From: an uncultured bacterium
Lineage (GTDB): Bacteria > Patescibacteriota > Saccharimonadia > Saccharimonadales > Saccharimonadaceae
Length of the DNA: 24,000 nucleotides
NCBI GenBank assembly: GCA_903821365.1
Contig: CAIJKY010000006.1
Coordinates: 1 to 24,000, forward strand
Reading direction: 5' to 3'
The translations under genes were made by a program, and so were the position numbers. Numbering within the stretch: the stretch's first letter is position 1; every line of letters begins with the position of its first letter. Under the pieces are notes generated by a model that saw only the letters and a program-made list of their open reading frames with translations, searched no databases and was not told the DNA's origin. This document shows positions 1-22,631 of this stretch, one piece after another.

Positions 1-23
1 CGATAGGGTACACTGAGTGTATT

Positions 24-1364
24 ATGCAATTACTGCAGCGTCGTTTTCTCTGGGTGGGCAGCTTATTTACGGTTCTAGCATCACTTTTTGTTGGAAGTGT
101 TATTTTTGCACCAAGCGCCAATGCCGCTGGAACTGAATATTATCAATATATTCCTGGACCACCGGCTTCTGTTCGCGTGACAGGGGGTAATATTGTTGGG
201 CCTTGGGGGTTAACGGCAACCGATGGGACCAACACGACATTTAAGGGAGATATTCTTGTTAAAGCGTCCGTCTCTCGTATTGGTTACGGCAAAGATCCTT
301 CTAAGACATATGCGGACTGTCGATATACGGCAACATTGAAGGTAAGTGGCGACACCAATGATGCCGCAGCGGCCAACCCGGTCGACGACACCGCTTACGT
401 TGACCTCACGCCAGACGGTGGCGGTTTTGGTGCTAAACCGGCTGGTTTCAGTGCTACTGAAGATGGCGCCTGCAAATTTGGTGACATTTCGTTTACTTCT
501 GGCGCAGAAGCTGGCTACGTAGAAGGCCAAGGCGCTGGCGGTGACGTAAAGCTACACGTCAAAGCCAGCCCAACTGATACTGGTGGTGCCGCAGGAGACC
601 CGGCCAACCCTAATGCGAGCGGTGGTGAAGTAAAGTGTACGAGCGGCGGGAGTCTTGACTGGATTCTTTGTCCTGTTATTGACGGCCTCCTAACATTTAG
701 TACCTTTTTGACTGGTTTAATAAGTAACCTCCTACAAGTCCCCGCAATAACGCCGACTTCTAATGGTGGTGTTCTTTATAATGTCTGGCAGAACATGCGC
801 AACATTGCCAACGGCTTCTTTGTGCTTGTCATGTTAGTAATCATCTTCTCTCAAGCCAGTTCAATGGGGTTAAGCGCCTATGGCCTCAAAAAGACGATTC
901 CTAAGCTCGCGCTGGCAGCAATTTTTGTAAATCTTAGCTTTTATATCTGTTCTTTCGGTGTCGATGTTTCAAACGTGCTTGGTAACGGTGTATCGACCAT
1001 CATGAATAGTGCGCTCAATGGGGCAGGTGGTACGGGTGATCCGGTTGGTATTATTAGCTCTATCTTGGGTGGCATTACGGCAAGTATTATTGGTGCGGCT
1101 ATTGCCTTCTTTTGTCTTGGAAGTCTTGGTGTTTTGGCGCTCTCACTTGTTGTTGGATTCTTGGTAATTGCTGCTCGCCAAGCGCTGGTTGTTATTTTGA
1201 TCATTGTTTCGCCAATCGCCTTTGTCCTCTGGATATTACCGAACACCGAGCAATACTACCGACGCTGGTCTGAATTGTTTATGACCGTACTGTTTATGTA
1301 TCCACTGATCATGTTGATACTCACAGGGTCGCAACTAGCAGCTAAAGTAATCGCAGGAATATAG
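24..1364 (+). CDS. VirB6/TrbL-like polytopic membrane protein with a secreted N-terminal domain (T4SS-like channel subunit)
   Basis: 446-aa ORF. Signal peptide ends in ...FAPSANA/AG. A ~190-aa Gly/Ala/Thr-rich domain with 4 Cys follows, then about 6-7 hydrophobic helices (res ~215-446) typical of the TrbL/VirB6, PrgH/TcpH class. It is the first gene of an operon that contains VirB3-like and VirB4 genes. Function is assigned from topology and context, not from a strong motif. Confidence 0.6.
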   Translation: MQLLQRRFLWVGSLFTVLASLFVGSVIFAPSANAAGTEYYQYIPGPPASVRVTGGNIVGPWGLTATDGTNTTFKGDILVKASVSRIGYGKDPSKTYADCRYTATLKVSGDTNDAAAANPVDDTAYVDLTPDGGGFGAKPAGFSATEDGACKFGDISFTSGAEAGYVEGQGAGGDVKLHVKASPTDTGGAAGDPANPNASGGEVKCTSGGSLDWILCPVIDGLLTFSTFLTGLISNLLQVPAITPTSNGGVLYNVWQNMRNIANGFFVLVMLVIIFSQASSMGLSAYGLKKTIPKLALAAIFVNLSFYICSFGVDVSNVLGNGVSTIMNSALNGAGGTGDPVGIISSILGGITASIIGAAIAFFCLGSLGVLALSLVVGFLVIAARQALVVILIIVSPIAFVLWILPNTEQYYRRWSELFMTVLFMYPLIMLILTGSQLAAKVIAGI

Positions 1365-1371
1365 ACGAAAT

Positions 1372-2592
1372 ATGGATGATTTAACACGAAAATTAGTTGC
1401 AGGAACAGTAGTAGCCGCTGGATTGTTAGCATTACCGGCTACGCTTCAGTTTGGTAAAATGGGATTTAATACGCTTAAAGGTATGGCGGCTGGTAGCCGG
1501 CTTGGTAAGAAGATTACGGGCGGCAGCGAAGGTGCTGCAGAGCGCATGAAAGAGAACCTGGGAGCGCGCATGGCAAGCAACAACCTTGGCCAGAACGCGA
1601 CAGGACGAGGCGCTGGCGCGAAGAGAGCTGCGGGTAGTGCAGCGGCATATCTCGGCGGCCGTGGTGCACGCAAGAAATACCAACGTGAATCAAGGTCAGC
1701 GAATGCGGCGCGTATTCAGCAAGAGCAGTTAGCAAAGAATCTGTTGGACGAAAAGCAGACCGGTATCAAAGGCGCTCCTGGAATATTCGGCAAGAAAACC
1801 TTTGCCCAGAGAGCTGCTGGACCTGGTGGCGAAGAAGCTGCACTGCGCGCACAGGCTAAGGGCGCAAGCACATTGAGCAGCATGATTGGCGAGGATATGA
1901 AGGCTGCGCAGACTATGATTGAGGATTCTGGGCTTACGGCTGGTGGACTTAGGGATCTTGCGGTAGACGGGAAAGCAACAACACCTTCTGGAAAAACGAT
2001 CTCTGGAGAACTTTATCAGAAAGCAGCTATAGGCAAGGCGGCTAAGGAGGGCCGTATAAACATACTAGAAGATGTAGTGAATAAAAGTACGCAAACTAAG
2101 CCGGATGGCAGTCGTGCACTATCTCATTCGGTTAGTGAGACACTCGCGTACCATCTTGGAGAAAACTACACTACACTCAAGGCAAAAGGACACGGTCTTA
2201 ATGATGACCGTGTAAAAGCAGCGCTTTCTCGAGGAGAGAGTGTGGGTCCAGCATTGCGAGAAGCGGCTTCGATGAAGGCTATGGGTGGGCTCACGGCAGA
2301 AAAGTTTGCAAGCCAAGACCCTCTTGAACTGAAGCATGTAAAGAGAGCACTTGAAAACAACATTGTTGTTCCACCTAAACCAGCCGATCTTAGGGCCGGC
2401 GCGAGCGAATCAGAAAAATCAGCGTACGAAACAGCTTTGGCAAATCATAAAATATACGCAGACATTGCCGACAATAGACAAAAAGTCATTGCACTTGCTA
2501 AGCGCACAATTGAAGATGCTCGTTTAAGTCAAGCATTTACTCAAGAGTCACGCGCAGATGCTGAAGCAATTGCAGCATTTGATAAGCCATAG
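1372..2592 (+). CDS. Hypothetical membrane-anchored protein, Ala/Gly/Lys-rich and probably helical; T4SS-associated by context
   Basis: 406-aa ORF starting 7 nt after the VirB6-like gene. It has one N-terminal hydrophobic helix (LVAGTVVAAGLLALPATL) followed by a long charged, Ala/Lys-rich soluble region. I recognise no catalytic motif. Confidence 0.5.
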   Translation: MDDLTRKLVAGTVVAAGLLALPATLQFGKMGFNTLKGMAAGSRLGKKITGGSEGAAERMKENLGARMASNNLGQNATGRGAGAKRAAGSAAAYLGGRGARKKYQRESRSANAARIQQEQLAKNLLDEKQTGIKGAPGIFGKKTFAQRAAGPGGEEAALRAQAKGASTLSSMIGEDMKAAQTMIEDSGLTAGGLRDLAVDGKATTPSGKTISGELYQKAAIGKAAKEGRINILEDVVNKSTQTKPDGSRALSHSVSETLAYHLGENYTTLKAKGHGLNDDRVKAALSRGESVGPALREAASMKAMGGLTAEKFASQDPLELKHVKRALENNIVVPPKPADLRAGASESEKSAYETALANHKIYADIADNRQKVIALAKRTIEDARLSQAFTQESRADAEAIAAFDKP

Positions 2593-2644
2593 TGTTACGG
2601 CAAATTTTCATCTCGCAATGATACTAAATTAAGGAATTCGTTTA

Positions 2645-3628
2645 ATGGCAGTATACAAAGTCCCCCAAGACGTAGAAGCAGAAGACAAGTTAGTCGGTCC
2701 ATTTACATTCCGGCAATCGGTGTATATGGGTATCGCCGTTGGTGCTGGTGGTTTGACCTTCTTGTTCATTCGCGCGCCGATACCGTTTCCGTTTTTCGCG
2801 GCATTAACAGTGCCAGTGATGATTGGCTTTTTGGTGCTTGCGCTTCCACTGCGTAAAGATCAGCCGATGGAGATCTACTTGATGGCGATTCTTCGCTTTA
2901 TGCTCAAGCCGAAGCGACGCATTTGGAGCACTGATGGCGTACCAGTCAGTGTTATTGTTGATGCACCAAAAGTTGTCGAGCAACATCTCACAAAAGACTT
3001 TACTGGCGACGAAGCCTCTGACCGTCTTAGTTACCTTGCGAAAATTGTCGACTCACGCGGCTGGGCGGCAAAGGGGATTGATATTCCAAACGGCCCGTCG
3101 CTCAGTAGCGCCGTGTTAAACGAAGCCGAGTCAACGGTTGACGTACTCGACGAAGACGCGCAGGTGGCGAAATCGTTCGACATGCTCTTGGCACGGCAAA
3201 AAGAAGTCTCGCGCAACGCCGCACGACAAACTATGCAGGGCATTGCACTTCGCATGCCCGGTGGCGCGCCATTACCGCTTGCACCAACGCCGATGGTAAG
3301 CAATATACCACCGCCAAGTCCTTACGCGCCGCCACCAGCCACCAGCGTACCTGGCTCACAACTATTACAGTACCTCCCAAGCCAGGCGCCAACCGCTCGT
3401 CAAGCGCCACAAATGTCAGTTATTCCAAATGAAGCGCCATCAATTGCGGCAGCGCCAACGTTTACACCAATGGCTCAATCTATAGCCACGCCAGACATGA
3501 CACAGACTGTCGCGCCTGCTATACTTAACCTGGCAAATAACAAAGACCTGAGCATCCAAGCAATCGCTCATGAGGCGGAGCGAATGGCGAGGAATGATGA
3601 GCTTGAAGTGGAAATTCCTTTGCGCTAG
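2645..3628 (+). CDS. PrgI-family (VirB3-like) T4SS membrane protein with a Pro-rich C-terminal extension
   Basis: The N-terminus MAVYKVPQDVEAEDKLVGPFTFRQ followed by two hydrophobic helices is the characteristic PrgI/TcpE-family opening. An AAGGA SD lies upstream. The gene sits immediately upstream of the VirB4 genes, as in Gram-positive conjugation loci. Res ~203-290 are P/A/S/T/Q low complexity. Confidence 0.7.
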   Translation: MAVYKVPQDVEAEDKLVGPFTFRQSVYMGIAVGAGGLTFLFIRAPIPFPFFAALTVPVMIGFLVLALPLRKDQPMEIYLMAILRFMLKPKRRIWSTDGVPVSVIVDAPKVVEQHLTKDFTGDEASDRLSYLAKIVDSRGWAAKGIDIPNGPSLSSAVLNEAESTVDVLDEDAQVAKSFDMLLARQKEVSRNAARQTMQGIALRMPGGAPLPLAPTPMVSNIPPPSPYAPPPATSVPGSQLLQYLPSQAPTARQAPQMSVIPNEAPSIAAAPTFTPMAQSIATPDMTQTVAPAILNLANNKDLSIQAIAHEAERMARNDELEVEIPLR

Positions 3629-3674
3629 GATGTTAGTATTAGGTGTAATCTTTAGGGTGGCAGAATAAAATACA

Positions 3675-4769
3675 ATGGATCCTCAAAACTATCCAGGACA
3701 ACAGCAACCAGGTAACGCTAATGTTCCTCCGACTGCATTTCCAGGCGGACAATATGCTATGCCGACACAACCGATGCAGGGCCAACAACCTTTGCCACCA
3801 CTTGGTGGTCCAATAGGGCCTATGCCAATGCAACCTGCTCCGCAATCAATGCAGCAGGCTATGCCTCCAATGGCGGCGCCACAACCGCAGGCACTACCGC
3901 AACAACCCGTTGCGATGCCTCAGCAGCAAATGCAAGCCCCAGCAATGGCGCAACAATCAGTTCCACTTCCGGCACAAGCAATGGTCGGCGGCGTGCCGCA
4001 AACCGTTCCGCCCGCAGGTAAAGGGGCGGCAAGCGTTCAAAAGCGTAATCTTAACAGCACTCAAAACACGCTACTTATCTCTGAGATTCGTGATAACATC
4101 GTCATTATGAGCGATGGTGGCATGCGCGCAATTGTTGCGTGTCGTTCAATCAATTTCGACCTGATGAGCGCCCGTGAACGCGAAGGCGTTGAGTATGGTT
4201 ACCAGAGTTTCTTGAACTCGCTTTACTTCGCTGTCCAGATTTTAATTCGCTCGCAGCGTGTCGACATTGGCCCGTATCTACAAAAGCTCAGCAAGCTTCG
4301 TCGCGACCAAGACAACATGCTACTCGGTGTCTTAATGGATGATTACATCGACTTTATCGCGACTATTTCTGAAGAGACGAACATTATGGATAAACAGTTT
4401 TACGTTGTAGTGCCGTTTTACCCAACAGGTGACTTAAGCAGTGCCGTCAACACAAGTAAAAACTTATTTGCGGGCATCGCACCAACAACGAAGCAGGCAG
4501 TGACGCACATTCCCGAGGCATCGTACCAAAAGGCTAAAGATGAGCTCCAAAACCGTGTCATGACGGTCATTAACGGCCTCTTGCAGATGGGTGTCCATTC
4601 AACACGACTTGATACTAAGCGTCTTGGTGAGTTGTATTACAACGTCTACAACCCAGACACCGCTGTCCGCGAACCGCTCGGTAGTTTCGACACTAGCACA
4701 CCGCCAATCGCTATCCGCAAAGGTACCGGCGAAGCACCACAGCCGCATCTAGAAAGGGAGTCAGCATAA
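3675..4769 (+). CDS. P/Q/M-rich protein carrying a VirB4 N-terminal-like domain (putative detached N-terminal module of VirB4)
   Basis: 364 aa. Res 1-118 are extreme Pro/Gln/Met/Ala low complexity. Res ~125-364 (NSTQNTLLISEIRDNIVIMSDGG..AIVACRSINFDLMSAREREGVEYGYQSFLNSLYFAVQILIRSQ) resemble, from memory, the extreme N-terminus of Tn916 Orf16/PrgJ/TcpF-type VirB4 proteins. The TAA stop overlaps the ATG of the VirB4 gene (ATAATG). Confidence 0.5.
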   Translation: MDPQNYPGQQQPGNANVPPTAFPGGQYAMPTQPMQGQQPLPPLGGPIGPMPMQPAPQSMQQAMPPMAAPQPQALPQQPVAMPQQQMQAPAMAQQSVPLPAQAMVGGVPQTVPPAGKGAASVQKRNLNSTQNTLLISEIRDNIVIMSDGGMRAIVACRSINFDLMSAREREGVEYGYQSFLNSLYFAVQILIRSQRVDIGPYLQKLSKLRRDQDNMLLGVLMDDYIDFIATISEETNIMDKQFYVVVPFYPTGDLSSAVNTSKNLFAGIAPTTKQAVTHIPEASYQKAKDELQNRVMTVINGLLQMGVHSTRLDTKRLGELYYNVYNPDTAVREPLGSFDTSTPPIAIRKGTGEAPQPHLERESA

Positions 4770-6700
4770 TGGGATTATTTGGCGGCAACAAAAAAGATCC
4801 AACTGATATCGCACAGGCACAGCGCCTCCGCGAACAGCAAGAGATCGAGCAAGAATTTCAAAAAGGTATCACGACACTTCGTGATCTGATTGCACCAAGT
4901 TCAATCGAATTTCAATCAAGTCATTTCCGTCTCGGCACAAAATATGGCCGAACGATTTATATTTATGGTTACCCTCGACAGGTCTACACTGGCTGGCTCA
5001 GTCCACTGATTAACATCGATGAAGTGGTTGACGTTAGTATGTTCGTCTACCCAGTTGAGAGTCAGATCGTATTGACCAACCTCCGCAAAAAAGTGTCACA
5101 GCTTGAGGCAAGTATCCAGCTCAACGCCGAACATGGCAAAGTACGTGACCCAGGCCTTCAGGCGGCTGTACAAGACGCTGAAGAACTGCGAGACCAATTA
5201 CAGGTTGGGTCTGAGCGCTTTTTCCGTTACGGCTTATATGTAACCGTTTACGCTGACAGCCTCGATGAACTGCAGTTTGTGCAGCATAAGATCGAAACTA
5301 TTCTTGGCCAACAATTGGTCTTTAGCAAGGTTGCATCGAGTCAACAAGAGCAGGGTCTTAACTCAACCTTGCCACAGCTATCTGACCAACTACAGATTCG
5401 TCGCAATATGAACACTGGCGCTATCTCTACCAGCTTTCCATTCACGAGCGCTGATTTAACGCAAGAATCGGGCATTCTTTATGGCATCAACATGCATAAT
5501 AACGGCCTGGTGATTTTTGACCGCTTTAGTCTTGAGAATGCCAACATGGTAGTCTTTGCTAAATCTGGTGCTGGTAAGTCGTACACCGTGAAACTCGAGG
5601 CACTACGCTCGATGATGATGGGTGCCGAAGTGTTGATCGTCGACCCTGAAAACGAGTATCAAAAATTGTGTGATGCGGTTGGTGGTGCTTACATTCGTTT
5701 GAGTCTTAATTCTGACACGCGTATCAATCCATTTGATTTGCCACGTGTTATCGATAGTGACGACGCCGAGGATGCGCTTCGTGCGAACTTAATCACACTG
5801 CATGGTTTACTGCGCTTGATGATGGGTGGTGCGCAAATTATGGCGAGTGGCGGCACAATGCCAGCACTGAGCCCACTCGAAGAGGCTGATCTTGACCAAG
5901 CGCTTATCGACACCTATGCTCGCGCTGGTATCACGAGCGACCCATTAACCCACAACTCCGTACCGCCAACAATTGGCGACCTTTACGAAACACTCCTCCA
6001 CATGGGTGGTACTGGCCCACAACTTGCACAGCGCTTGCGCAAGTACACCAGCGGTACGTTTGCCGGTATTTTCTCTCAGCAAAGCAACGTTCACATCGAC
6101 AACCCAATGGTCGTGTTTAATATTCGCGACCTTGAAGATGAACTACGGCCGGTCGCTATGTACATCGTTTTGAGCTACATCTGGAACAAGACCCGTAGTG
6201 ATCAGCGTCGTCGCTTGCTACTTGTTGATGAGGCTTGGCAGCTGATGAAATATGACGACTCTGCAAACTTCTTGTTCAGCCTGGCAAAACGTGCTCGTAA
6301 GTACTTCCTTGGCCTTACCACCATTACTCAGGACGTTGAAGACTTTATGGGTAGCAAAATGGGGCGGGCAATTGTGGCCAACGCCTCTATGCAGCTTCTA
6401 CTCAAACAATCGACAAGTGCGGTTGATGTGCTTGCTGAAGTCTTCAAGTTAACTGATGAGGAACGTAAGCGTCTTGCGCAATTCCCGGTAGGGCAGGGGT
6501 TATTCTTTGCTGGACAGAGCCATGTGCACGTACAAATTATTGCCAGCCCGACCGAACATTCGCTTATTACAACCGATCCTCGACAATTGCAGCAAATTCA
6601 ACAGATCCAAGATGCTTCGGCGGCGGCCGCAACACCAGTGGCGCCGGGTAACGACGTCAGCACAAGCTCACCATACGCAACACAAAATTTAGGGAACTAG
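4769..6700 (+). CDS. virB4: VirB4-family type IV secretion ATPase (Gram-positive PrgJ/TcpF/TrsE type)
   Basis: 643 aa. Walker A is AKSGAGKSYT (nt 5561-5590) and Walker B is LLLVDEAWQLM (around nt 6221-6232). The N-terminal LIAPSSIEFQSSHFRLG..YGRTIYIYGYPRQVYTGWLSPL motif is typical of Firmicute-type VirB4. A strong SD (AAGGGAG, 4754-4760) lies 8 nt upstream of the ATG. Confidence 0.9.
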   Translation: MGLFGGNKKDPTDIAQAQRLREQQEIEQEFQKGITTLRDLIAPSSIEFQSSHFRLGTKYGRTIYIYGYPRQVYTGWLSPLINIDEVVDVSMFVYPVESQIVLTNLRKKVSQLEASIQLNAEHGKVRDPGLQAAVQDAEELRDQLQVGSERFFRYGLYVTVYADSLDELQFVQHKIETILGQQLVFSKVASSQQEQGLNSTLPQLSDQLQIRRNMNTGAISTSFPFTSADLTQESGILYGINMHNNGLVIFDRFSLENANMVVFAKSGAGKSYTVKLEALRSMMMGAEVLIVDPENEYQKLCDAVGGAYIRLSLNSDTRINPFDLPRVIDSDDAEDALRANLITLHGLLRLMMGGAQIMASGGTMPALSPLEEADLDQALIDTYARAGITSDPLTHNSVPPTIGDLYETLLHMGGTGPQLAQRLRKYTSGTFAGIFSQQSNVHIDNPMVVFNIRDLEDELRPVAMYIVLSYIWNKTRSDQRRRLLLVDEAWQLMKYDDSANFLFSLAKRARKYFLGLTTITQDVEDFMGSKMGRAIVANASMQLLLKQSTSAVDVLAEVFKLTDEERKRLAQFPVGQGLFFAGQSHVHVQIIASPTEHSLITTDPRQLQQIQQIQDASAAAATPVAPGNDVSTSSPYATQNLGN

Positions 6701-6703
6701 GAC

Positions 6704-9700
6704 ATGCCAACGACGCTTCCTCCAGGTGACAAAAAGCACGAAGACAATCGCTTTGCGCGCAATGTGGCCGACGACCACGAGCGTCGTATTACTGGTGGCG
6801 CGTTTACCGAAGAAGAGAAGCGCAAAATTGGCGACCAGGCGAGAGAAGAAGGACGTCAGACGGCAGATATGTCGCGTCAGCAGCAGCTTGACGCATTAGA
6901 GCGCAACGAGAATCCTAAAGCGAGTCCTGTTAGCAAAAAAGACATTGCCAAGCAAGAATCGGCGCCATGGGAAACAAATGTTAATCCCGAGGGGCCAGCA
7001 AAGACCAAAGGACCGAGTAAAAAGCGCATGAAAATTTTCGTGGCGTCTATCTCGGTTTTTTCGGTTGGCAGTATTTTGGCCTTTTCGTTCTTATTGCCAT
7101 TAAAACTTTTGCATTTTATTGGCAATATCGATCAAGCCGCTGCATACGTCGGCGACAAAGCAGTTGGCAACTGGGTGGAAAACCGTCTTGATTTTTATAT
7201 TGCTGCGCGCATCCTTGCTACTGGTGGCGATGGCAAAGTCGATGGCAATAAGTTTGACCAATATGTCTGTAAGGGTGGTAACATCGCGTGCTCGATGTTC
7301 AAAGGTTGGCGGCTTGGCAAGATCGAAGATAAACTTGGCCTAAAGATCGAGAGTAACCGTACGGGTGTCGGTAATACTGCGACAAAGTGGAAAATTACCC
7401 ACACTGAAAGCGGCCAATCGGTGAGTGGTGACGGCGCTGATGTCGATGGTATTTCGCGTGAGATTGAAACTAGTTCGTCGAATGAATTCCGGCGTATTAT
7501 TGCCGAGCGCACAGAGTCGGTTTCAAAATATAAGTTCTCGTACAAACGTTATGCCACGCGTAAGATGCTTGCCAGAAAGTACGATGTGCGGCGCTGGACG
7601 GGACTCTTGAAACCAGTCGGGCTTGATCAAAAGTTTGATAATGCACTCGACAAAAAGAATGCGTTCTTTAAAGACATCCGCAAAAAGTTAGTGAAAGCGA
7701 CCGTATCAAAAACAAATGCGCGCAATGGGCTCTATATCGAATGTCTCTTGGGTGGCGACTACGATGCGTGTAAAGAGCGGTTGCGCCAGCGATCGTCTGG
7801 CGCAAATGGGCCAGATACAGCCAATAATGGGACCGATGACACCAACGCTGCCAATGAAGCCTCGCAAGTCGACCCAGACGAACTGGTTGATGAAGTAAGC
7901 GCCAATGGCGAAGCAGATGCCGTTGGTAAAGAAGCCGGTAAAACGGTCAGTAAATTCTTATCGAAAAAAGTTCTTGCCAGTGCAGTCGCAGGGGCGGGTG
8001 TCATCGATATTATTTCATCAGCCGTTTCAGCCACCAGCGATGGTACACTCAGCATGATCCAAGCCGACAGGGCAAAAGTGGCCTATGCCGGTTACTACAC
8101 CGAGCTCGCAACCTCAGCGCATCAACTCAAGTTTGGTGATATCGACCCAGAGGCTTATCAAGCACTTGATGGCATTATGTCAGGCATGGAGGGGAGCCCA
8201 GTTGCCCAGCATCAGCTTGGTGTTAATCCGACGCTTGGTACTGCCTCGAACCCAGTAAAACGTGACTGTAACGACGGTCAAGGCACAGTACAGCTCGACG
8301 TTGGTGAATATACTTGTACGGATAAACAAATTCAGCAGGATGTCGCTGGATTCCAGAAATTCTATGCAACCGAAGTTGGTCAAGTTATTACTAACATCAA
8401 TACCATTTGGAAAAACACTGGTCATGCCATTATTCAGTTTTTCGGCCAATTGCTTCCAGTTGACTGGCTCGTTCAGAAATTACTTGAGGCACTTCCAGTA
8501 CTAAAAACCGCCATGGCTGATTTAGTAGACGCAGCCGTTGGTTGGATATTCTCTACGCCAGTAACTGGTCTTGAAACTGGCCCTGATGCCTACGACGCAA
8601 TGGCAGCCGGTGGCGAAGTGGTTAATGACAGCATGCTTGCAGAAGGCCAGGCCGATGATGGTACCGGTATGGGCATGGGTGCCGTACCGGCAGCACCAAA
8701 AGTAGCCGCCGACTACCAGCGTGCTTACGCCGAAGAAAAGCAAGTAGCCTACGAGAAAAGCTCATTGGCTGACAAGATCTTTAACCCTGACATTCAAGGC
8801 TCTGTTGCCGACAGGGTGCTCATGACAACACCGACCAACATCGCCAGCATTTTCACCCAGCCAATCTCGCTCGCAGCAAGCATGCTCAGTTACTCGCCAC
8901 AAGCAAAGGCCTTCCAAAATATAGGCGACAACATCTTCCATGATGACAAATACGCTTGGCCACTTGATCCAAAAGATGCAGCGTACAATACCGATCCAAC
9001 GCAAATTAACGAAGCCACCTGTGATGCGTCACGCAAGTTCCGTAATGATAGCTATGAGAAACGCGACGGTGAGATTATACCGATGTATCACGAGTACGAT
9101 CCGTGCGCGCTTGAAAAAGTCGGGGCAGTGGCTGGCTCGAACACTTTCACCGATGCTTACAAGAAAGACTTTGATCTTAATGTTGGAGACGCTGCGGCGG
9201 CCGCACCAACACCGACCGCACAGACTGGAACACCAGGGCAGACAAAGCCGCTTGGTAGTGGTTTCACGCTTGCCGATGGCACGGATTATACTGCAACTCC
9301 ATGTGCAGCAGGATCAACCGAAAGCCGCATCTACACCCACCCGATCAAGGCATTTAAGGTACGTCTTTGTAAAGTCAAAAGTATGGAAGTTGCATCGATT
9401 ATTAGCGACAAGTTAGTCGCCATGGTGAATGCTGCGCAAGCCGCCGGTATCGACCTTAATGGTGGCGGATTTAGAACCTACGAGCAACAAATTGAAGCGC
9501 GTAAACGTAATGGCTGCCCAGCTGACCCAACCGCAGCCAGTACTACTTGCCGCGTTCCGACTGCGCCTCCTGGAACTGGTCAGCATGAGCGGGGCTTAGC
9601 TATCGACTTCACTGCCGGCGGTGGCACTATCGGCAAAAGCTCAGCTCAATACAAATGGCTCACCGCTAACGCCGCAAAATTCGGCTTCATCAACTATCCG

Positions 9701-9736
9701 GCCGAAAGCTGGCACTGGTCAACCTCAGGAAATTAA
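6704..9736 (+). CDS. Large membrane-anchored T4SS-associated protein with a C-terminal peptidase M15 (VanY-like D-Ala-D-Ala carboxypeptidase/endopeptidase) domain
   Basis: 1010 aa. It has a charged N-terminal ~110 aa, one TM helix (IFVASISVFSVGSILAFSFLLPL) and a ~715-aa ectodomain I cannot assign. An Ala/Pro/Thr linker leads to a C-terminal domain with M15B motifs GGFRTYEQQ, GQHERGLAIDF (HxxGxAxD) and ESWHWS (ExWH). Confidence 0.8.
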   Translation: MPTTLPPGDKKHEDNRFARNVADDHERRITGGAFTEEEKRKIGDQAREEGRQTADMSRQQQLDALERNENPKASPVSKKDIAKQESAPWETNVNPEGPAKTKGPSKKRMKIFVASISVFSVGSILAFSFLLPLKLLHFIGNIDQAAAYVGDKAVGNWVENRLDFYIAARILATGGDGKVDGNKFDQYVCKGGNIACSMFKGWRLGKIEDKLGLKIESNRTGVGNTATKWKITHTESGQSVSGDGADVDGISREIETSSSNEFRRIIAERTESVSKYKFSYKRYATRKMLARKYDVRRWTGLLKPVGLDQKFDNALDKKNAFFKDIRKKLVKATVSKTNARNGLYIECLLGGDYDACKERLRQRSSGANGPDTANNGTDDTNAANEASQVDPDELVDEVSANGEADAVGKEAGKTVSKFLSKKVLASAVAGAGVIDIISSAVSATSDGTLSMIQADRAKVAYAGYYTELATSAHQLKFGDIDPEAYQALDGIMSGMEGSPVAQHQLGVNPTLGTASNPVKRDCNDGQGTVQLDVGEYTCTDKQIQQDVAGFQKFYATEVGQVITNINTIWKNTGHAIIQFFGQLLPVDWLVQKLLEALPVLKTAMADLVDAAVGWIFSTPVTGLETGPDAYDAMAAGGEVVNDSMLAEGQADDGTGMGMGAVPAAPKVAADYQRAYAEEKQVAYEKSSLADKIFNPDIQGSVADRVLMTTPTNIASIFTQPISLAASMLSYSPQAKAFQNIGDNIFHDDKYAWPLDPKDAAYNTDPTQINEATCDASRKFRNDSYEKRDGEIIPMYHEYDPCALEKVGAVAGSNTFTDAYKKDFDLNVGDAAAAAPTPTAQTGTPGQTKPLGSGFTLADGTDYTATPCAAGSTESRIYTHPIKAFKVRLCKVKSMEVASIISDKLVAMVNAAQAAGIDLNGGGFRTYEQQIEARKRNGCPADPTAASTTCRVPTAPPGTGQHERGLAIDFTAGGGTIGKSSAQYKWLTANAAKFGFINYPAESWHWSTSGN

Positions 9737-9744
9737 CGAGAAAA

Positions 9745-10992
9745 ATGATGCATAAAAAGTTACTCTATTTCAAAAAAGGCCTACTCGTACTCATCGCTTT
9801 GGTGTGCGCAAGCGCCAACGTTGCAACAGTACATGCTGCTGTGCCCACGCCAAATGACCAAAACGCCATCAATCTTGAGGCGCCATTCTACGACCCAAAC
9901 TTTGTTGACCAAAGTTGCACGGGCACTGTGCCTCCAGGTGGATCGGTCGGGGGTGCAGCCGGATCAACAGCAGCAGCAAACGTTGAAGCGTTTGTCGATA
10001 AATATGGCAAACAAGCTTTTGACGTTGGCAAGAAAAACGGCATTCCTTACGAAGCAATCTTGGCGCAAGCAATTCTAGAGTCAAGTTATGGAAAATCACA
10101 GCTCACTCAGCAGGCTAATAATTTCTTTGGCATCAAAGCTGGTTCGTCATGGACGGGCCCGACCGTCACTAAACGAACAGCCGAGCAAAAACCCGACGGC
10201 TCAGTGTATTACGTTGATGCTGCGTTTCGCGCTTACCCAAGTGCCGAAGCGGGATTTCAAGGCTATGCCGACTTTATTCGCGGCTCAGATCGCTATAAAA
10301 AAGCACTTGCATATCCTGGCGACCCAGTAAAGTACATACAAGCAATTAAAGATGCTGGCTACGCCACCGATGTCAGTTACGTTCAAAAGAATGTCACTAT
10401 TCAAGAAAAAGTAAAGTCTTACATCGCGAGTAAAAACCTCTTCCCACCATCGTCACAGGTAGTACCTGATGTCGCGGCGACCACCCCCGGCGTTGCCGCA
10501 CCAAATGTCTGCAGCTCCGCAGCCGCAGCGGGTGCAGGTGGCAGTGTCGTACAAGTTGCAATGGCAGAGCAAGCCGCCTGGAAAAAGGGGAGTGACTACC
10601 ACAAATATACACTTGGCGGCTCGGGCAACTGGTGTGCATGGTTTGTTTCATGGGTGTTTAAGCAAGCGGGTCGGCCAATGATCGCACCACCGAATGTTGG
10701 CCAGGTGCAGGGATGGAGTATTTCTTCAGTCGACAATATAAAAGCATACATGGTTGGCAAGAACGCTTTCAATGCTAAAGCAAACGCACCCGCACCAAAA
10801 CCCGGTGATATCGTTATTTACAAAGAAGGCATGAGCCACACTAACATCGTTGTTTGGTCGGATGGCTATATGGTTAAGACTATTGGTGGCAACCAAGCCT
10901 CAAATGACATCAATGCCAGCAGTGTCACCATCAGCCCAGCAGTCGATATTAGAAACTTAAGTGGCGTAACCGGATGGGGGACACTACCGTAA
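9745..10992 (+). CDS. Secreted bifunctional peptidoglycan hydrolase: GH73 N-acetylglucosaminidase domain + CHAP amidase/endopeptidase domain
   Basis: 415 aa. The signal peptide ends in ...ATVHA/AV. GH73 motifs are PYEAILAQAILESSYGKS, NNFFGIKA and AGYATDVSYVQK. An Ala/Pro linker follows. The CHAP domain has catalytic Cys in NWCAWFVSWVFKQAG and His in MSHTNIVV. This matches the PrgK/TcpG/TraG class of T4SS hydrolases. Confidence 0.85.
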   Translation: MMHKKLLYFKKGLLVLIALVCASANVATVHAAVPTPNDQNAINLEAPFYDPNFVDQSCTGTVPPGGSVGGAAGSTAAANVEAFVDKYGKQAFDVGKKNGIPYEAILAQAILESSYGKSQLTQQANNFFGIKAGSSWTGPTVTKRTAEQKPDGSVYYVDAAFRAYPSAEAGFQGYADFIRGSDRYKKALAYPGDPVKYIQAIKDAGYATDVSYVQKNVTIQEKVKSYIASKNLFPPSSQVVPDVAATTPGVAAPNVCSSAAAAGAGGSVVQVAMAEQAAWKKGSDYHKYTLGGSGNWCAWFVSWVFKQAGRPMIAPPNVGQVQGWSISSVDNIKAYMVGKNAFNAKANAPAPKPGDIVIYKEGMSHTNIVVWSDGYMVKTIGGNQASNDINASSVTISPAVDIRNLSGVTGWGTLP

Positions 10993-11693
10993 TGAAAAAT
11001 AAGAAACTACTTATTGTTGGTGGATTTTTGGTGCTGTTAGTGCTTATAGGACTTGGTTTTGCAGGCGTCCAGAGTTTTACGTTTCAGCTTGCAAAGAGCT
11101 ATCCTGACAACAACGGCACCCTTAACGTCGGCAATTCGATCATCTTAACCTACAATCGAGATATTCAGGACGGTGCCAAAATAACTGCTCCATTTACTTA
11201 CACAACGAAAGTTGATGGTGCCAAGTTATATGTCACCCCAAATGCCGAACTTGCACAGGATAGGCCTTACCAAATCACTGTTAGCGGCGTCAAAGAGAAG
11301 AATGGCAGTGCAGTGGCGGCAAATACAACATTGATTTTTAAAGTAGCAGCATTACCATTCAACACACTGCCAAAAGAACAGCAAGACGAACTGTCAAACA
11401 CTGATAATATTGAGTATCGGCTCAACCCAGTCAGTGCGATTCTGCCAATTGCCGAACTTGAATACGCGATCGACTCAGCCAAGCTCAACGGCAAATACTA
11501 CACCGTCATTACACCAGCAGCTACGCCAAGCGCCGGCCTGACTGAAGATGAGTATAATGCTGAATATAAACGCGAGTACGACGAAGGCGTCGCCTTGCTC
11601 AAAGAAAAAGGTTTTGACGCTAAAAAGGTAAATGCTATTAGCGATCAAGACTACGCAAAATTACAATCAAAGACCACCGAAGGTTCTGAATAA
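10992..11693 (+). CDS. Membrane-anchored protein with a bacterial Ig-like (Big_5/SbsA-like) domain; last gene of the T4SS-like operon
   Basis: The ORF is open from 10974. I prefer ATG 10992, which overlaps the upstream TAA (TAATG) and gives MKNKKLLIVGGFLVLLVLIGL, a signal-anchor. The segment YPDNNGTLNVGNSIILTYNRDI...YQITVSGVKEKNGSAV..TLIFKV fits the Big_5 Ig-like pattern. Function is unknown. Confidence 0.5.
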   Translation: MKNKKLLIVGGFLVLLVLIGLGFAGVQSFTFQLAKSYPDNNGTLNVGNSIILTYNRDIQDGAKITAPFTYTTKVDGAKLYVTPNAELAQDRPYQITVSGVKEKNGSAVAANTTLIFKVAALPFNTLPKEQQDELSNTDNIEYRLNPVSAILPIAELEYAIDSAKLNGKYYTVITPAATPSAGLTEDEYNAEYKREYDEGVALLKEKGFDAKKVNAISDQDYAKLQSKTTEGSE

Positions 11694-11696
11694 AAG

Positions 11697-12752
11697 TTAC
11701 AGCGCAATGATAGCGCCGCCGCTAATACCACTTGGCACATAGGTTGCCTCTGTGGTCGTCAGTATCATCTGATAGCCCCTCAGAAGGCTCGCCAAGGCCT
11801 CCTGGCGGGTACTATCAAGCTCACTCATCACATCATCAAGCAATAATAATGGTGATCGTCCACTTAGCTCAGCAAGCTGAGTAACTTCGATATGTTTCAT
11901 TGCTAGCATAAGACTTCGCTGTTCACCGCGCGACGCAGTACTCAAAGCGGGTTGATTATTTATTTTGATGTTAAAATCACTACGATGTGGCCCGATGGTT
12001 GTGTAGCCGCGACGAATATCCAAACCGCGTAACGATCGTAGAGCAGCGATAAAATCAGATTTTTCAGTCTGCTGACTGGTTTCGTAATCCACGCGTATAT
12101 CGTGCGGTGCACGCGCAATACGACTGTATTCTTCGCTCATTGATTGATTTAAAATTGCGACCACTTGATGACGGTAGCGTTCAATATGCGCCGCAGCCTC
12201 AGCCAGCGATACGTCCCAGACGAACAACTGATCATCAAGTTGCGCCTGCGACAAATCATAGGCTTGTTTGAGTAAGTTATTGCGCTGCAATAAAACGCGA
12301 TCATAACGGCGCAGAAGCGCGCCACCATCAAAGAACCATTGGCCAATCAAGGTATTCAAGAATAAACGCCGACGGGCAGGCGAACCAGACAATACACGTA
12401 GCATGTCAGGCTCGAACAGTACAACCGGCAACGCATCTTCACGCTTGAAGCGTTTCTTAGCCCCGCCATTAATCGATAATGTCTTGGGCGGTCTGATAGA
12501 CGATTCGTACCGCATGGTGCGTTCCTGGTCGTCGTAGACGCCGTCTAAGCGAAACCACTTGGCGTCGGTCTGCACTACGTCTTTGTCGGCCACACGAAAC
12601 GATGTACCAGTCGACAGCATATGCACCGCTTCGAGCAAATTGGTCTTGCCGATGCCATTAAGCCCAACGATGACATTCACTCCCTCGGAAAATTCAAAGA
12701 AACTATCGCTATATGAGCGGAAATTCTGTACACGCAGCGAAACAATAGCCAT
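11697..12752 (-). CDS. recF: DNA replication and repair protein RecF
   Basis: MAIVSLRVQNFRSYSD...GLNGIGKTNLLEA (Walker A), SRGEQRSLMLAMK signature and LLLLDDVMSELD (Walker B). It lies directly downstream of dnaN. Confidence 0.95.
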   Translation of the reverse strand: MAIVSLRVQNFRSYSDSFFEFSEGVNVIVGLNGIGKTNLLEAVHMLSTGTSFRVADKDVVQTDAKWFRLDGVYDDQERTMRYESSIRPPKTLSINGGAKKRFKREDALPVVLFEPDMLRVLSGSPARRRLFLNTLIGQWFFDGGALLRRYDRVLLQRNNLLKQAYDLSQAQLDDQLFVWDVSLAEAAAHIERYRHQVVAILNQSMSEEYSRIARAPHDIRVDYETSQQTEKSDFIAALRSLRGLDIRRGYTTIGPHRSDFNIKINNQPALSTASRGEQRSLMLAMKHIEVTQLAELSGRSPLLLLDDVMSELDSTRQEALASLLRGYQMILTTTEATYVPSGISGGAIIAL

Positions 12753-12773: not shown

Positions 12774-13868
12774 CTACGACTTTAACGGCATGATGAGATG
12801 TAAATAGCTGTCATCATTCTTGGCACGAAGAATACAAGCAGCCAGCTTGCCACTAAAAGAGAAGGTGAGGGGAGAGTCGTCAATGCAACCTAGCCCTTCG
12901 ATAAGATAGCGGGAATTAAGCGTTACTTTACCATCGTTCGAAACAACGGCTGTCGCCTCGGATGTGTTTTCACCCAGTTGTGAGGCAATTGAATGAATTT
13001 TAACCGTACCGCTTTCGGCCGAAGCGTCGATTGTCACACCGCCGCCACTTTCGCGGGCGAACAAACTGGCGACTTTCGTGATGCGTACAAAATCGGGCTT
13101 GGCGATTTCGACAACCGTATCGTTGTCGCTGGGGATAAGCTGTCGATAGTCAACAAAGGTGCCATCGATTAGCTTGCTGGTGATTTCGATATCACCAAGA
13201 CGCAATCGGACCTGAGCTTCATCGAGCAAAACTTTGACCGTCGTTATGTCGTCGGTGAGTACGCGAACCGCCTCTGATAGGGCAGTGGCCGGGATGATCG
13301 CCGCGACTTCACCATCGAATTGCTTCAGCAACTGGCGTTCAGCGAGACGGTAGCCATCGGTTGCAGCCATGTACAATGCGCCGCCATGACTGTGCCAATA
13401 CACACCAGTCAGAATGGGGCGGGTGTCGTCGTGTGATGCAACCAAGGCGACTTGCTGGATAGCGCGCTTGAGCAGTTTTGCATCCAGCTCAAGTTCAATG
13501 GTCGTCTCAATACTTGGCAGGTCAGGGAACTCATCAGCTTGCATGCCATGGATCTTTGAACTATAGCCACCGCTTTTGATATTGAGCGTCGTGCCTTCGA
13601 GTATCATTTCGACATTACCCGCAGGCAAACTGGTGATGAAGTCACTCATCAAGCGTGCTGGGACAGTAAAGCCGCCGTTTTGCTCAACTTTACCGCCGAC
13701 GTATTCAGTGATTGCGATTTCCAGGTTAGTAGCTGCGAGGAGAAGTCGATTATTATCGGCTCTTAAGAGAATATTGCCAAGAATCGGTAATGACGTCTTG
13801 GCACTAGCAACACGACCAACAGTTGTTAAGGCGCTGGCGAGTTTTTCTTGGGTGACGGTTAGTTTCAT
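12774..13868 (-). CDS. dnaN: DNA polymerase III beta sliding clamp
   Basis: 364 aa. The N-terminus MKLTVTQEKLASAL..LPILGNILL..LLLAATNLEIAI is typical of DnaN. A GGAG SD is present. Position in dnaA-dnaN-recF synteny supports the call. Confidence 0.95.
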   Translation of the reverse strand: MKLTVTQEKLASALTTVGRVASAKTSLPILGNILLRADNNRLLLAATNLEIAITEYVGGKVEQNGGFTVPARLMSDFITSLPAGNVEMILEGTTLNIKSGGYSSKIHGMQADEFPDLPSIETTIELELDAKLLKRAIQQVALVASHDDTRPILTGVYWHSHGGALYMAATDGYRLAERQLLKQFDGEVAAIIPATALSEAVRVLTDDITTVKVLLDEAQVRLRLGDIEITSKLIDGTFVDYRQLIPSDNDTVVEIAKPDFVRITKVASLFARESGGGVTIDASAESGTVKIHSIASQLGENTSEATAVVSNDGKVTLNSRYLIEGLGCIDDSPLTFSFSGKLAACILRAKNDDSYLHLIMPLKS

Positions 13869-15874: not shown

Positions 15875-16012
15875 ATGCCAAAACGTACTCACCAGCCAAA
15901 GACGCGCCACCGCGCTAAAACTCACGGTTTTCGTGCTCGCATGTCGAGTCGCACCGGCCGCACAGTGTTAAAGCTACGCCGCCTAAAAGGCCGTAAACAA
16001 CTCACGGTGTAG
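15875..16012 (+). CDS. rpmH: 50S ribosomal protein L34
   Basis: Not in the ORF track because it is under 60 aa. My translation is [45 protein letters not shown], the canonical L34 sequence. It precedes rnpA. Confidence 0.95.
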
Positions 16013-18151: not shown

Positions 18152-19279
18152 CTAAAGCGCTTCGTTGTAAATTGCGAGCGTTTGCTCGGCCATACGGCGC
18201 CAAGAGTATTTTTTATAACAAAGGTTACCCCTGGTGCGGAGTTTTGTGGCAATTTTCTCATCGCTCAGTACAAGCTCGAGCTTTGCAGCAATGTCGCCAT
18301 GGTTGTGTGCGTCAAAGTAGAGTGCAGCATTGCCGTAAATCTCTGGCAGGCTGGTCGCATCGCTACTGACAACGGGCGCGCCATGCTGCATCGCTTCAAG
18401 ACCTGGCAAACCAAAGCCTTCCATGAAAGATGGAAAAACATATGCTTTACAGTGTTCATACATCCATGCCAGCTCGGCATTGTCGGCAAAACCATAAAAT
18501 ACAACGTTTTTGTAGCCTTGCTCCCCCACCCAAGCTATATCGCGTTCGCGAAAGGTATCTTTTTTGCCAACGATGATGAGTTGCAAGTCAGGAAATTTTG
18601 ATAGTAGTAACTGATGGGCCCGTATAAGATTACGATTGTTTTTATAAGGTTCGGCACGCCCCACGTATAAAATAAACGGTATATTATGCAGTCTGGTGAC
18701 GGTACGCGGCTTATCGCTCAGAGCATCAGCAGCCTCGTACGTAACAGTTACCTTTGATTCGTCGATCTCGGTCAGCTCGATAAAATCGCGTTTCGTGTAT
18801 TCGCTCGGCGTGATGACATGAGCGGTTTGCCGGGCGACACGCTGCAGCAACCACTTTAAGACTCTCTGCTTGGCGCGTAGTACTACAACCGGCATGTCAT
18901 CAACCTCAGTCAGGCGCAGCTGGTTAAGGTCGTGAACGGTCGTGACGGTCGTACCTTTGTAAAGAACTGGCTGTTGAGGCATGCAGAAATGAACAAGATC
19001 GGCATTAAGAGTATCAAGAAAGCGCTTAAAACCAAGCTGCTCGGCAAAACTGTAATTGGCAAAATCAGCCACAGTGACTGTGAAGTTCGTAGATGTGGGC
19101 TGCCAATAATCTTTGTCGGCGCTCGGCACAAGTATTGTAAAACGATGTGGCGAGTTGAGCTTTTCAAGGTTGGTGAGCAAGCGCTCAACGTAACGCCCGG
19201 TACTAGAATTGATGATCCGGGCATCAATGACGATATGAGCCGATGCAGCGTGAGATTGTGTTTTATGAGGCATGTACAT
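18152..19279 (-). CDS. Glycosyltransferase family 4 (GT-B fold)
   Basis: 375 aa. The C-terminal EGFGLPGLEAMQHGAPVVSSDATSLPEIYGNAALYFD is the GT4 E-x7-E region. An alternative start lies at 19273. Confidence 0.85.
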   Translation of the reverse strand: MYMPHKTQSHAASAHIVIDARIINSSTGRYVERLLTNLEKLNSPHRFTILVPSADKDYWQPTSTNFTVTVADFANYSFAEQLGFKRFLDTLNADLVHFCMPQQPVLYKGTTVTTVHDLNQLRLTEVDDMPVVVLRAKQRVLKWLLQRVARQTAHVITPSEYTKRDFIELTEIDESKVTVTYEAADALSDKPRTVTRLHNIPFILYVGRAEPYKNNRNLIRAHQLLLSKFPDLQLIIVGKKDTFRERDIAWVGEQGYKNVVFYGFADNAELAWMYEHCKAYVFPSFMEGFGLPGLEAMQHGAPVVSSDATSLPEIYGNAALYFDAHNHGDIAAKLELVLSDEKIATKLRTRGNLCYKKYSWRRMAEQTLAIYNEAL

Positions 19280-19333
19280 GTATCGTCGGACATTCGGCTG
19301 TTTCTGTCAATTGCTGTATAATATGTCTCTGAT

Positions 19334-20137: not shown

Positions 20138-20157
20138 GGCTGTCTCACGATTATTCT

Positions 20158-21339: not shown

Positions 21340-21357
21340 CCATGGCGTCAAGCAGAA

Positions 21358-21377
21358 ACTACCAGTATACTGGTAGT
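21358..21377. promoter_or_regulatory. Perfect 20-bp palindrome ACTACCAGTATACTGGTAGT in the GT4-wzt spacer (operator or RNA hairpin candidate)
   Basis: Perfect dyad symmetry read directly from the sequence, with TATA at its centre. It lies 57 nt upstream of the wzt ATG (SD GAGGGAG at 21418-21424). Confidence 0.4.
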
Positions 21378-21433
21378 GATAATTACCTATGTAAGACAAC
21401 AGACGCGACAGATACAGTGAGGGAGAAAAACTG

Positions 21434-22627: not shown

Positions 22628-22631
22628 GGGG

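Follow-up and report, generated by a model that had tools for sequence, protein, structure and literature searches.

Among the type IV secretion systems (T4SSs) described so far, the closest to the locus reported here is that of Southlakia epibionticum, in which SEML1_0006-0019 were annotated as an unusual Gram-positive-like T4SS whose pilin array is essential and in which neither a coupling protein nor a relaxase could be recognised (Wang 2023; PMC10633639). The order there begins with dnaA (0001), dnaN (0002), recF (0003) and two small exported beta-sandwich proteins (0004/0005). It continues with a lysozyme/cysteine-peptidase (0006), a 1,113-aa protein with a C-terminal DD-peptidase fold (0007), VirB4 (0008), a TrsD-like protein (0009), PrgI (0010), the VirB6-like proteins 0011 and 0013 with the NTF2-like 0012 between them, the pilins 0014-0019 and Hsp20 (0020) (PMC10633639). 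We analysed a 24,000-nt stretch of contig CAIJKY010000006.1, referred to as the window, in which positions 24-11693 of the + strand hold eight co-oriented open reading frames (ORFs), ORF1 to ORF8, of a T4SS of this kind.

Across Patescibacteria, a study of 3,035 genomes found that the VirB4 clade nests within MPF-FATA, that TrsD, VirB3, VirB6 and VirB2-like pilin arrays accompany VirB4, that relaxases are almost always absent, and that the cluster tends to lie near dnaA, dnaN, rnpA and rpmH (Quinonero-Coronel 2025; PMC12102498). A 2025 review listed these systems as a new T4SS type (PMC12857230), and a 2024 perspective called their role completely unknown, with nucleotide acquisition as one possibility (PMC11665869). 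A preliminary description of the window had considered such loci essentially uncharacterised. This holds for the substrate, still unknown (PMC11665869), but not for the architecture, which was described across the 3,035 genomes (PMC12102498). The transposon sequencing that it proposed had already been carried out in S. epibionticum, where all cluster genes were essential except SEML1_0012 (PMC10633639).

The gene order at our locus is the mirror image of SEML1_0003-0020, gene for gene, including the recF and Hsp20 flanks. ORF3 corresponds to SEML1_0010, ORF6 to SEML1_0007 and ORF7 to SEML1_0006, all three with essential counterparts; SEML1_0006 has lysozyme-like domains and a Cys proteinase domain. 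ORF8 resembles SEML1_0005, an essential exported protein of the immunoglobulin (Ig)-like/PEGA type. Neither cluster contains a coupling protein or a relaxase, and every feature listed for the Patescibacteria clade is present here, with no essential difference. With a probability of about 0.8, we regard the block as the Saccharibacteria orthologue of the chromosomal, non-conjugative T4SS found in S. epibionticum (SEML1_0004-0019) and across Patescibacteria. Such a system does exist here, but it was already published in 2023 and 2025; the window holds one more orthologous copy and no new kind of system.

Some differences from S. epibionticum were found. That species has two long VirB6-like genes (1,088 and 998 aa) and the non-essential NTF2-like gene, whereas in the window a single VirB6 is divided between two ORFs (446 and 406 aa) and the NTF2-like gene is missing. 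Two small genes precede recF in S. epibionticum and one in the window, and the glycosidase at the ORF7 position is a phage-tail lysozyme plus GH73 in the former and GH73 only in the latter. The additions made here are small: the recognition of ORF2 as a detached VirB6 tail, the TrsD/VirB4 split shared with Bacillota replicons, the interchangeable hydrolase domains, and the pilin-bearing layout of a Pontibacillus locus. The 3,035-genome study reported neither a split VirB6 nor hydrolase domain swapping, beyond extra M23/LysM domains in some VirB1 homologues (PMC12102498).

For the assessment of conservation, VirB4 (ORF5) was scanned against one genome per species, which resulted in 567 relatives. 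The best 80, picked by VirB4 similarity and numbered with the prefix L, were used for locus comparison by tblastn, phmmer and ORF maps. In these best 80 of 567 relatives, VirB4 is 78-91% identical; nearly all carry a Saccharibacteria or Saccharimonadales label or none, and a few are labelled otherwise. On the basis of these identity levels, and not of a tree, the VirB4 is assigned to the Patescibacteria clade and the window organism to the Saccharibacteria. The conserved order is Hsp20, pilin array (- strand), VirB6, PrgI, TrsD, VirB4, a 750-1,600-aa protein, a ~400-470-aa protein, one to three small ORFs, and recF/dnaN/dnaA (- strand). The recF/dnaN/dnaA genes lie downstream in 51/52 loci with at least 9 kb of flank, and the order of ORF sizes after VirB4 matches in 56 loci. 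Pilin genes were detectable upstream in 38/48 loci; in the others, a second tandem VirB6 paralogue often fills the upstream space and may push the pilins out of range.

Median identities in the same loci (49-80 loci, chosen by VirB4) were 82% for VirB4, 61% for DnaA, 55% for DnaN and 41% for RecF, which makes VirB4 the most conserved protein of the neighbourhood. The extracellular parts evolve fast, with 36% for VirB6, 39% for PrgI and 35-49% for the pilins, and ORF6-ORF8 are mostly undetectable by BLAST. This pattern points to lineage-wide vertical inheritance under strong constraint, the opposite of the patchiness expected of an integrative and conjugative element (ICE). Separately, locus L015 (JASFQB010000003.1, labelled Candidatus Woesebacteria) carries PrgI-TrsD-VirB4 at 85% identity, with no pilins, VirB6 or recF/dnaN/dnaA within 10 kb. 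It is the sole such locus with full flanks; either the genome has been rearranged, or the contig was binned or assembled wrongly.

Among all ORFs of the window and of the 3 kb upstream, Pfam and NCBIfam scans revealed no domain of a relaxase, type IV coupling protein (T4CP; VirD4/TcpA) or integrase. No tRNA was found in the window, the flanking repeats were only chance-level imperfect direct matches of 16-26 nt with no notable inverted repeats, and the GC composition shows no step at the locus boundaries. The domain and repeat scans agree with the preliminary description, which had seen no relaxase, coupling ATPase, integrase, oriT-like repeat or att flank in the window. Its view that the block is not a recently integrated ICE is borne out by the same site across the lineage and the lack of integration features. 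An ICE or its decaying remnant, with DNA-processing genes outside the window, would be in line with a VirB4 from a family named for conjugative elements and with the conjugative layout of the closest plasmid relative, from Embleya. Nevertheless, the locus occupies the identical chromosomal site between Hsp20 and recF in dozens of species, without integrase, tRNA, att repeat or GC anomaly. Its eight ORFs are intact, its VirB4 is more conserved than DnaA, its orthologues are essential, and relaxases occur in only 103/3,035 Patescibacteria genomes (PMC12102498). We rejected the ICE on synteny and the absence of integration features, and consider it highly improbable.

Table 1. Features of the T4SS locus and its surroundings (window positions unless L001 is given).
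Feature	Position	Strand	Assignment	Basis or remark
ORF1, 446 aa	24..1364	+	VirB6/TrbL-like polytopic channel subunit (predicted)	orthologue TrbL/VirB6 matches, topology
ORF2, 406 aa	1372..2592	+	C-terminal hydrophilic domain of an extended VirB6, detached	tail HMM
ORF3, 327 aa	2645..3628	+	PrgI/VirB3-like membrane subunit	Pfam PrgI, E 1.5e-14, residues 5-93
ORF4, 364 aa	3675..4769	+	TrsD-like, equivalent to VirB4 N-terminal domain	NCBIfam TrsD, E 7.9e-8
ORF5, 643 aa	4769..6700	+	VirB4 ATPase without the first ~180 model positions	NCBIfam conju_CD1110
ORF6, 1010 aa	6704..9736	+	membrane-anchored, C-terminal VanY/LdcB-type zinc peptidase	Pfam VanY, E 4.2e-13, residues 896-1006
ORF7, 415 aa	9745..10992	+	GH73 glucosaminidase + CHAP peptidase, secreted or anchored	Pfam, 9e-32 / 6.5e-10
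ORF8, 239 aa	10974..11693	+	N-terminally anchored exported protein with Ig-like (Big_5) domain	Pfam, 23.6 bits, exactly the cut-off
Divergent intergenic region	1..23	.	window end	right part of the 150-nt gap between pilin array and ORF1
Six tandem VirB2-like pilin genes, 101-157 aa	L001 398-2844	-	pilin array	PF18895; outside the window
recF	11697-12752	-	right-hand neighbour, outside the system	Pfam
dnaN	12774-13868	-	context, outside the system	Pfam
dnaA	14195-15628	-	context, outside the system	Pfam
rpmH	15875-16012	+		followed by rnpA, yidC, jag, all +
GT4 glycosyltransferase	18152-19279	-	polysaccharide module	
ABC-2 permease	19334-20137		polysaccharide module	
Second GT4 glycosyltransferase	20158-21339		polysaccharide module	
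Wzt-type ABC ATPase with Wzt_C carbohydrate-binding domain	21434-22627		polysaccharide module	
FkbM methyltransferase	22632-23642		polysaccharide module	

In the ORF list of the window, the spacings from ORF1 to ORF8 are 7, 52, 46, -1, 3, 8 and -19 nt, and the ORF8 stop (11693) is separated by 3 nt from the convergent recF stop (11697). The preliminary description had placed all eight genes and the 3-bp distance to recF correctly. Its spacing of -1 to 52 nt has to be widened to -19 to 52 nt, given the 19-nt ORF7/ORF8 overlap. The VirB6-like protein, PrgI, VirB4 and two hydrolases on its list were reproduced by domain searches and orthologues; however, the list totals nine proteins, and two ORFs (ORF2 and ORF8), not three, were left unassigned. 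Its placement of the locus beside the replication origin is justified by DnaA boxes around dnaA, one perfect at 14142 and three with one mismatch at 13939, 15712 and 15795, in two short intergenic regions on either side of the gene. The 150-nt gap between the pilin array and ORF1 is presumed to be a bidirectional promoter region; consensus scans for promoters and terminators gave counts equal to those of shuffled sequence, and the Rfam scan was empty. At the far end of the window, a cell-surface polysaccharide module occupies 18152-23642.

The motor of the system is VirB4. ORF5 scored 369.2 bits against conju_CD1110 (curated cut-off 325; positions 179-732 of 752), which identifies a VirB4 of the MPF-FATA type. 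It also matched Pfam P-loop_TraG (E 1.8e-28), AAA_10 and DUF87, and its translation shows an intact Walker A motif (KSGAGKS) and an intact Walker B motif (LLLVDEAW). ORF4 matched positions 98-253 of VirB4_plasma, the full-length mycoplasma VirB4 model, and the two ORFs together tile a complete VirB4. In an alignment of 61 sequences, one per species, the ORF4 domain (residues ~125-350) has 47% mean column identity and many invariant residues, and it follows a variable, P/Q-rich leader of ~120 aa. The ORF4 stop overlaps the ORF5 start (TAATG), preceded by a strong Shine-Dalgarno sequence (AAGGGAG). Pontibacillus and Priestia likewise have a TrsD-like gene immediately before that of a short VirB4, and further TrsD-like matches were found in Clostridium perfringens and in Geobacillus-group replicons. 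Since the ORF4 domain is conserved, the junction is coupled and the same arrangement occurs in Bacillota, the TrsD/VirB4 split is a trait of this VirB4 subfamily and not damage. The earlier reading of a VirB4 in two pieces was right in that two ORFs tile one protein; rather than a broken gene, they form a conserved TrsD + VirB4 pair that is also present in Bacillota replicons.

The VirB6 channel protein was assigned from its orthologues and its membrane topology. ORF1 consists of a signal or anchor segment, an ectodomain of ~180 aa and five hydrophobic helices; hydropathy gave five to six segments (11-29, 214-232, 258-276, 291-309, 387-405 and 418-436). Its phmmer matches cover 59 loci, and Pfam TrbL/VirB6 was detected in 18/46 of its orthologues (best E 3.2e-6). 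Even under relaxed settings, Pfam matched neither ORF1, ORF2 and ORF4 nor the N-terminus of ORF6, and PDB sequence and profile searches with ORF1, ORF2, ORF8, the TrsD family and the VirB6 family gave nothing significant. A precomputed table listed TrbL_3 for ORF1 and TraC-like for ORF4; our own Pfam scans contained neither, and we relied on NCBIfam and orthologue-level matches instead.

ORF2 has a single N-terminal hydrophobic helix followed by an Ala/Gly/Lys-rich region; it has no Pfam match, and a word-based homologue search returned only itself. Most relatives have a VirB6-like protein of 800-1,200 aa. From other Saccharibacteria, 66 long VirB6-like proteins (700-1437 aa) were taken, and their C-terminal tails were used to build a hidden Markov model (HMM). 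ORF2 scored 88.2 bits against it (E 2.6e-26, profile positions 33-363), whereas the best of 500 shuffles reached 3.5 bits. From these scores, ORF1 and ORF2 make up one extended VirB6, divided behind its final membrane helices. At the junction (1362-1374) the two ORFs lie in different frames, 7 nt apart. Fission of VirB6 also occurs in L003, L004 and L010, with different junctions, whereas the second-closest relative (L005) has a fused VirB6 of 983 aa; the recurring split suggests repeated fission, or that fission is tolerated. Pseudogenisation of VirB4 or VirB6 by frameshift was also considered. It was rejected, as both halves are intact and the splits recur in several species with different junctions; further evidence against it is that identical ORFs occur in independent metagenome assemblies and that TrsD and VirB4 are translationally coupled.

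Many loci carry two long VirB6-like paralogues in tandem upstream of PrgI (e.g., L022, L029, L030, L031, L033, L038, L041, L044, L046, L050, L056, L075, L081 and L082), and the window has one VirB6 only. It also does not have the extra 300-425-aa gene that relatives have between the pilins and VirB6. ORF3, the next gene of the block, has a long Pro-rich C-terminal extension and orthologues in 71 loci.

The DNA upstream of the window was obtained from metagenome contig L001, which is identical to window positions 1-2284 (0 mismatches) and reaches 2,971 nt further upstream. Outward from the window it contains the 150-nt divergent gap, six small genes on the opposite strand and the 3' end of Hsp20, and these ~3 kb hold no relaxase, T4CP or integrase. 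Neither of the two conditions that the preliminary description had named as refuting it applies, since pilin and housekeeping genes stand upstream in place of DNA-processing genes and the block is conserved at one site across the lineage. ORF1 starts at L001 2995 and the last of the six genes ends at L001 2844. Each of the six encoded proteins has a signal peptide and two hydrophobic helices. Five score above the gathering threshold of PF18895 (T4SS_pilin; E 6.5e-10 to 2.9e-7), the sixth is weaker (4.8e-4), and pairwise identities are 23-49%. The preliminary description had spoken of a minimal MPF-FATA set; with a six-gene VirB2-like pilin array adjoining just outside the window, the set is not minimal. 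Beyond L001 position 5255 (window 2285 onwards), the last ~230 nt of the contig diverge completely and cut ORF2 to 306 aa, probably an assembly chimera at the contig end and not a biological variant.

The two hydrolases follow VirB4. ORF6 contains both the H-x6-D and E-x-x-H motifs of its peptidase. Its AlphaFold2 (AF2) model, built on 80 homologues (predicted local distance difference test, pLDDT, 77; predicted TM-score, pTM, 0.70), has a disordered N-terminus of ~100 aa, presumably cytoplasmic. There follow a 67-residue helix, part of which is the membrane anchor, an ectodomain that is helical throughout and extends to about residue 820, a disordered linker and the C-terminal VanY/LdcB fold. 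Six Cys residues (347, 356, 522, 538, 773 and 801) are invariant. In a Foldseek search against PDB, only the C-terminal domain found matches (LdcB/VanY, E 4e-4), and residues 1-850 found none. By HMMER scan, the N-terminal module forms a family of 301 cluster representatives at E<=1e-3.

ORF7 has an N-terminal hydrophobic segment (6-24), and its catalytic E112, C297 and H365 are nearly invariant among aligned positional orthologues. It is predicted to be a bifunctional peptidoglycan hydrolase and the VirB1-type wall breacher of the system. ORF8, the fast-evolving last gene of the cluster, has a transmembrane segment at 12-30 and only a poor single-sequence AF2 model (pLDDT 42). The small ORFs at its position in relatives (n=91) carry PEGA (12), CarboxypepD_reg (4), Big_5 (2) or TcpC (1) domains. 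Word-based searches with ORF8 and the ORF6 N-terminus returned self or two matches only; the families were recovered via positional orthologues and the full HMMER scan.

The enzymatic domains at the two hydrolase positions vary among species. The 47 proteins at the ORF6 position carry M23 (13), VanY (9), Exo_endo_phos (4), CHAP (1) and C39-like (1) domains, with none detected in the rest. At the ORF7 position, 44 of the 57 proteins have a phage-tail lysozyme domain, and across the 57 we also found CHAP (12), C39-like (10), M23 (7), amidase_3 (4), GH73 (4) and VanY (3), plus M15_4, GH43, GH3 and SLT. The nuclease/phosphatase-type Exo_endo_phos domain (EEP), found in four ORF6-position proteins (E down to 7e-32), is also present in one ORF7-position protein. 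The window's own combination (VanY; GH73+CHAP) is among the rarer ones. Both positions therefore combine a constant scaffold with enzymatic heads exchanged between species (loci L003-L081). The exchange may reflect adaptation to differing wall chemistries, possibly the host's, or simple non-orthologous replacement of a VirB1-type function.

A further reading takes ORF6 and ORF7 as host-range cassettes, in which the T4SS-linked ORF6 scaffold, a helical ectodomain of ~850 aa with disulfides and no relative among solved structures, and the ORF7-position lysozyme module would carry swappable heads aimed at the host envelope and not at the organism's own wall. The heads in question are M23, VanY, CHAP, C39 and EEP at the ORF6 position and CHAP, C39, M23, amidase, VanY, GH43 and GH3 at the ORF7 position. 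We consider this reading unlikely. If it were true, the head type would fit the peptidoglycan chemistry of the host and decide which hosts the T4SS pilus can penetrate.

The system was also compared with relatives outside Patescibacteria. MPF-FATA conjugative T4SSs (pCF10 Prg/Pcf, pIP501 Tra, pGO1 Trs and the C. difficile CTn type) share with the window the CD1110-family VirB4 and the order VirB6 - VirB3 (PrgI) - VirB4 - wall hydrolase, with TrsD as in pGO1. Bifunctional glycosidase+CHAP hydrolases such as TraG and CwlT belong to MPF-FATA systems, and ORF7 is alike. In contrast to these systems, the window shows no T4CP (PcfC/TraJ), relaxase or oriT in view and no surface adhesin; the locus is chromosomal and vertically inherited, and it adds VirB2-like pilins and the ORF6 scaffold, which has no counterpart there. 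The nearest plasmid-borne VirB4s in PLSDB are 37-39% identical, the closest (39%) being that of Embleya (Actinomycetota). The order there is VirB6-like, PrgI, small gene, VirB4, T4CP, replication-relaxation protein and NlpC/P60. A T4CP and a relaxase-type gene thus stand exactly at the ORF6/ORF7 positions of Saccharibacteria, in a conjugative layout.

A colinear locus was found in Pontibacillus sp. ALD_SL1 (Bacillota), on the 898-kb replicon NZ_CP062975.1 at ~351-361 kb (L083 7038-17030). It consists of two PF18895 pilins, a 779-aa extended TrbL/VirB6, a PrgI/TraL-like (VirB3-like) protein, a TrsD-like protein (5e-21 against ORF4), VirB4 (37% identical to ORF5) and a 1,050-aa hydrolase. Within 12 kb, the annotation lists neither a T4CP nor a relaxase. 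Unlike at our locus, the host is free-living, the genes lie beside flagellar genes and not at the origin, and the hydrolase is NlpC/P60+M23, with an N-terminal part not homologous to ORF6. This locus indicates that VirB2-like pilins beside an MPF-FATA-type VirB4 are not confined to Patescibacteria. The pilin genes and the split VirB4 may therefore have come with an ancestral monoderm element and not be a patescibacterial invention.

Helicobacter pylori ComB, archaeal Ced and Bordetella Ptl likewise operate without a coupling protein or relaxase. These precedents are VirB4-driven, and work inward for ComB (DNA uptake) and Ced (DNA import) and outward for Ptl (toxin). ComB and Ptl are diderm systems, Ced is archaeal and the accessory proteins are other ones. 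Sequence similarity is limited to the VirB4/HerA ATPase core. With respect to cargo, we tentatively ranked the import of host material a little ahead of effector export, with adhesion without cargo lower and conjugation far below.

An uptake machine for nucleic acids or nutrients of the ComB/Ced type, feeding an organism unable to make nucleotides, is a sub-case of the model preferred below and a possible reading. The lack of a T4CP and relaxase in view fits it, as does a weak, partial match of the ATPase core of VirB4 to CedB (E 2e-12), although its 46.6 bits are far under the cut-off of 700, and the window contains no ComB-specific subunits or CedA/CedB above cut-off. In S. epibionticum comEC is dispensable and the T4SS essential, and the T4SS was proposed as the nucleotide route (PMC11665869); the link between T4SS and uptake in Patescibacteria is, however, a proposal only, and the window encodes no DNA-/RNA-binding or nuclease component. 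In another cultivated Patescibacterium, a 2026 preprint described tubes that penetrate the host and uptake of host RNA, not tied to a T4SS, which speaks for uptake and gives the idea of a conduit circumstantial support by analogy.

Export was proposed by Wang 2023 (PMC10633639) and McLean 2020. Proteins, possibly enzymes of the ORF6/ORF7 type, would be translocated into or onto the host cell, whose envelope and physiology they would remodel. At the hydrolase positions, the varying enzymatic domains at the C-terminus resemble polymorphic effector architecture, and T4CP-less exporters exist in Ptl and Brucella VirB (PMC12102498). On the other hand, no effector has been identified so far, and with ORF6 anchored in the membrane by its N-terminus and ORF7 provided with a Sec-type leader, passage through the T4SS is not required for them. 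We hold this reading to be doubtful.

A machine that only assembles VirB2-type pili, which would attach to the host as adhesins or spacers and let no substrate pass, is improbable in our estimate. The six divergent pilin paralogues (23-49% identical) and the essential orthologous array in S. epibionticum (PMC10633639) are compatible with it, and antigenic or host-range variation has been suggested (PMC12102498). Type IV pili, however, already give Saccharibacteria adhesion and motility, and the fact that an extended VirB6 has been kept, together with two dedicated wall hydrolases, suggests a conduit across the envelope.

The working model that we prefer combines the observed gene identities, synteny and absence of DNA-processing genes in view with the essentiality of orthologues known from the literature. 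The VirB4 ATPase (ORF5), completed by the separate N-domain protein TrsD (ORF4) and tethered to the membrane via PrgI/VirB3 (ORF3), would power the assembly of an extended-VirB6 channel, of which ORF1 supplies the membrane portion and ORF2 the hydrophilic tail. It would also power the polymerisation of VirB2-like pilins from the six divergent upstream genes, from which we infer that a pilus is formed. The ORF6 scaffold with its VanY peptidase and the GH73+CHAP enzyme ORF7 would cut peptidoglycan for passage through the epibiont wall and probably the host wall, and ORF8 may be an Ig-like accessory protein of the wall zone. Where epibiont and host touch, the machine would act as a conduit or a penetrating pilus through which macromolecules pass, and not in conjugation. 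The preliminary description had likewise seen a domesticated channel, Gram-positive-type by origin and probably repurposed for host interaction, and synteny and literature support it.

Several points weigh against this interpretation. The Pfam scan gives no direct match of ORF1 to any VirB6 model, and no VirB8-like component (PrgL/TraM/TcpC, NTF2 fold) was found in the window by Pfam or NCBIfam. The search for a T4CP or relaxase covered the window and 3 kb upstream, and a distant one in the same genome is possible; many Patescibacteria have T4CP homologues, which in S. epibionticum are non-essential (PMC12102498). The evidence for essentiality comes from the S. epibionticum orthologues and not from the window organism, and the ORF6/ORF7 hydrolases could serve the epibiont's own wall only. 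We know of no demonstrated case of a pilus made by a monoderm T4SS.

For the biology of these organisms, the system is the first T4SS shown to be essential for its own bacterium. It is conserved throughout a major uncultivated lineage, and it is a leading candidate for how ultrasmall epibionts draw what they need from host bacteria. The value of the window lies in a compact variant for structural and comparative work, which has a single VirB6 in two pieces and does without the NTF2-like gene. Together with the modular hydrolase heads and the colinear Bacillota locus, the split of VirB6 could guide experiments on host specificity and on where the pilus came from.

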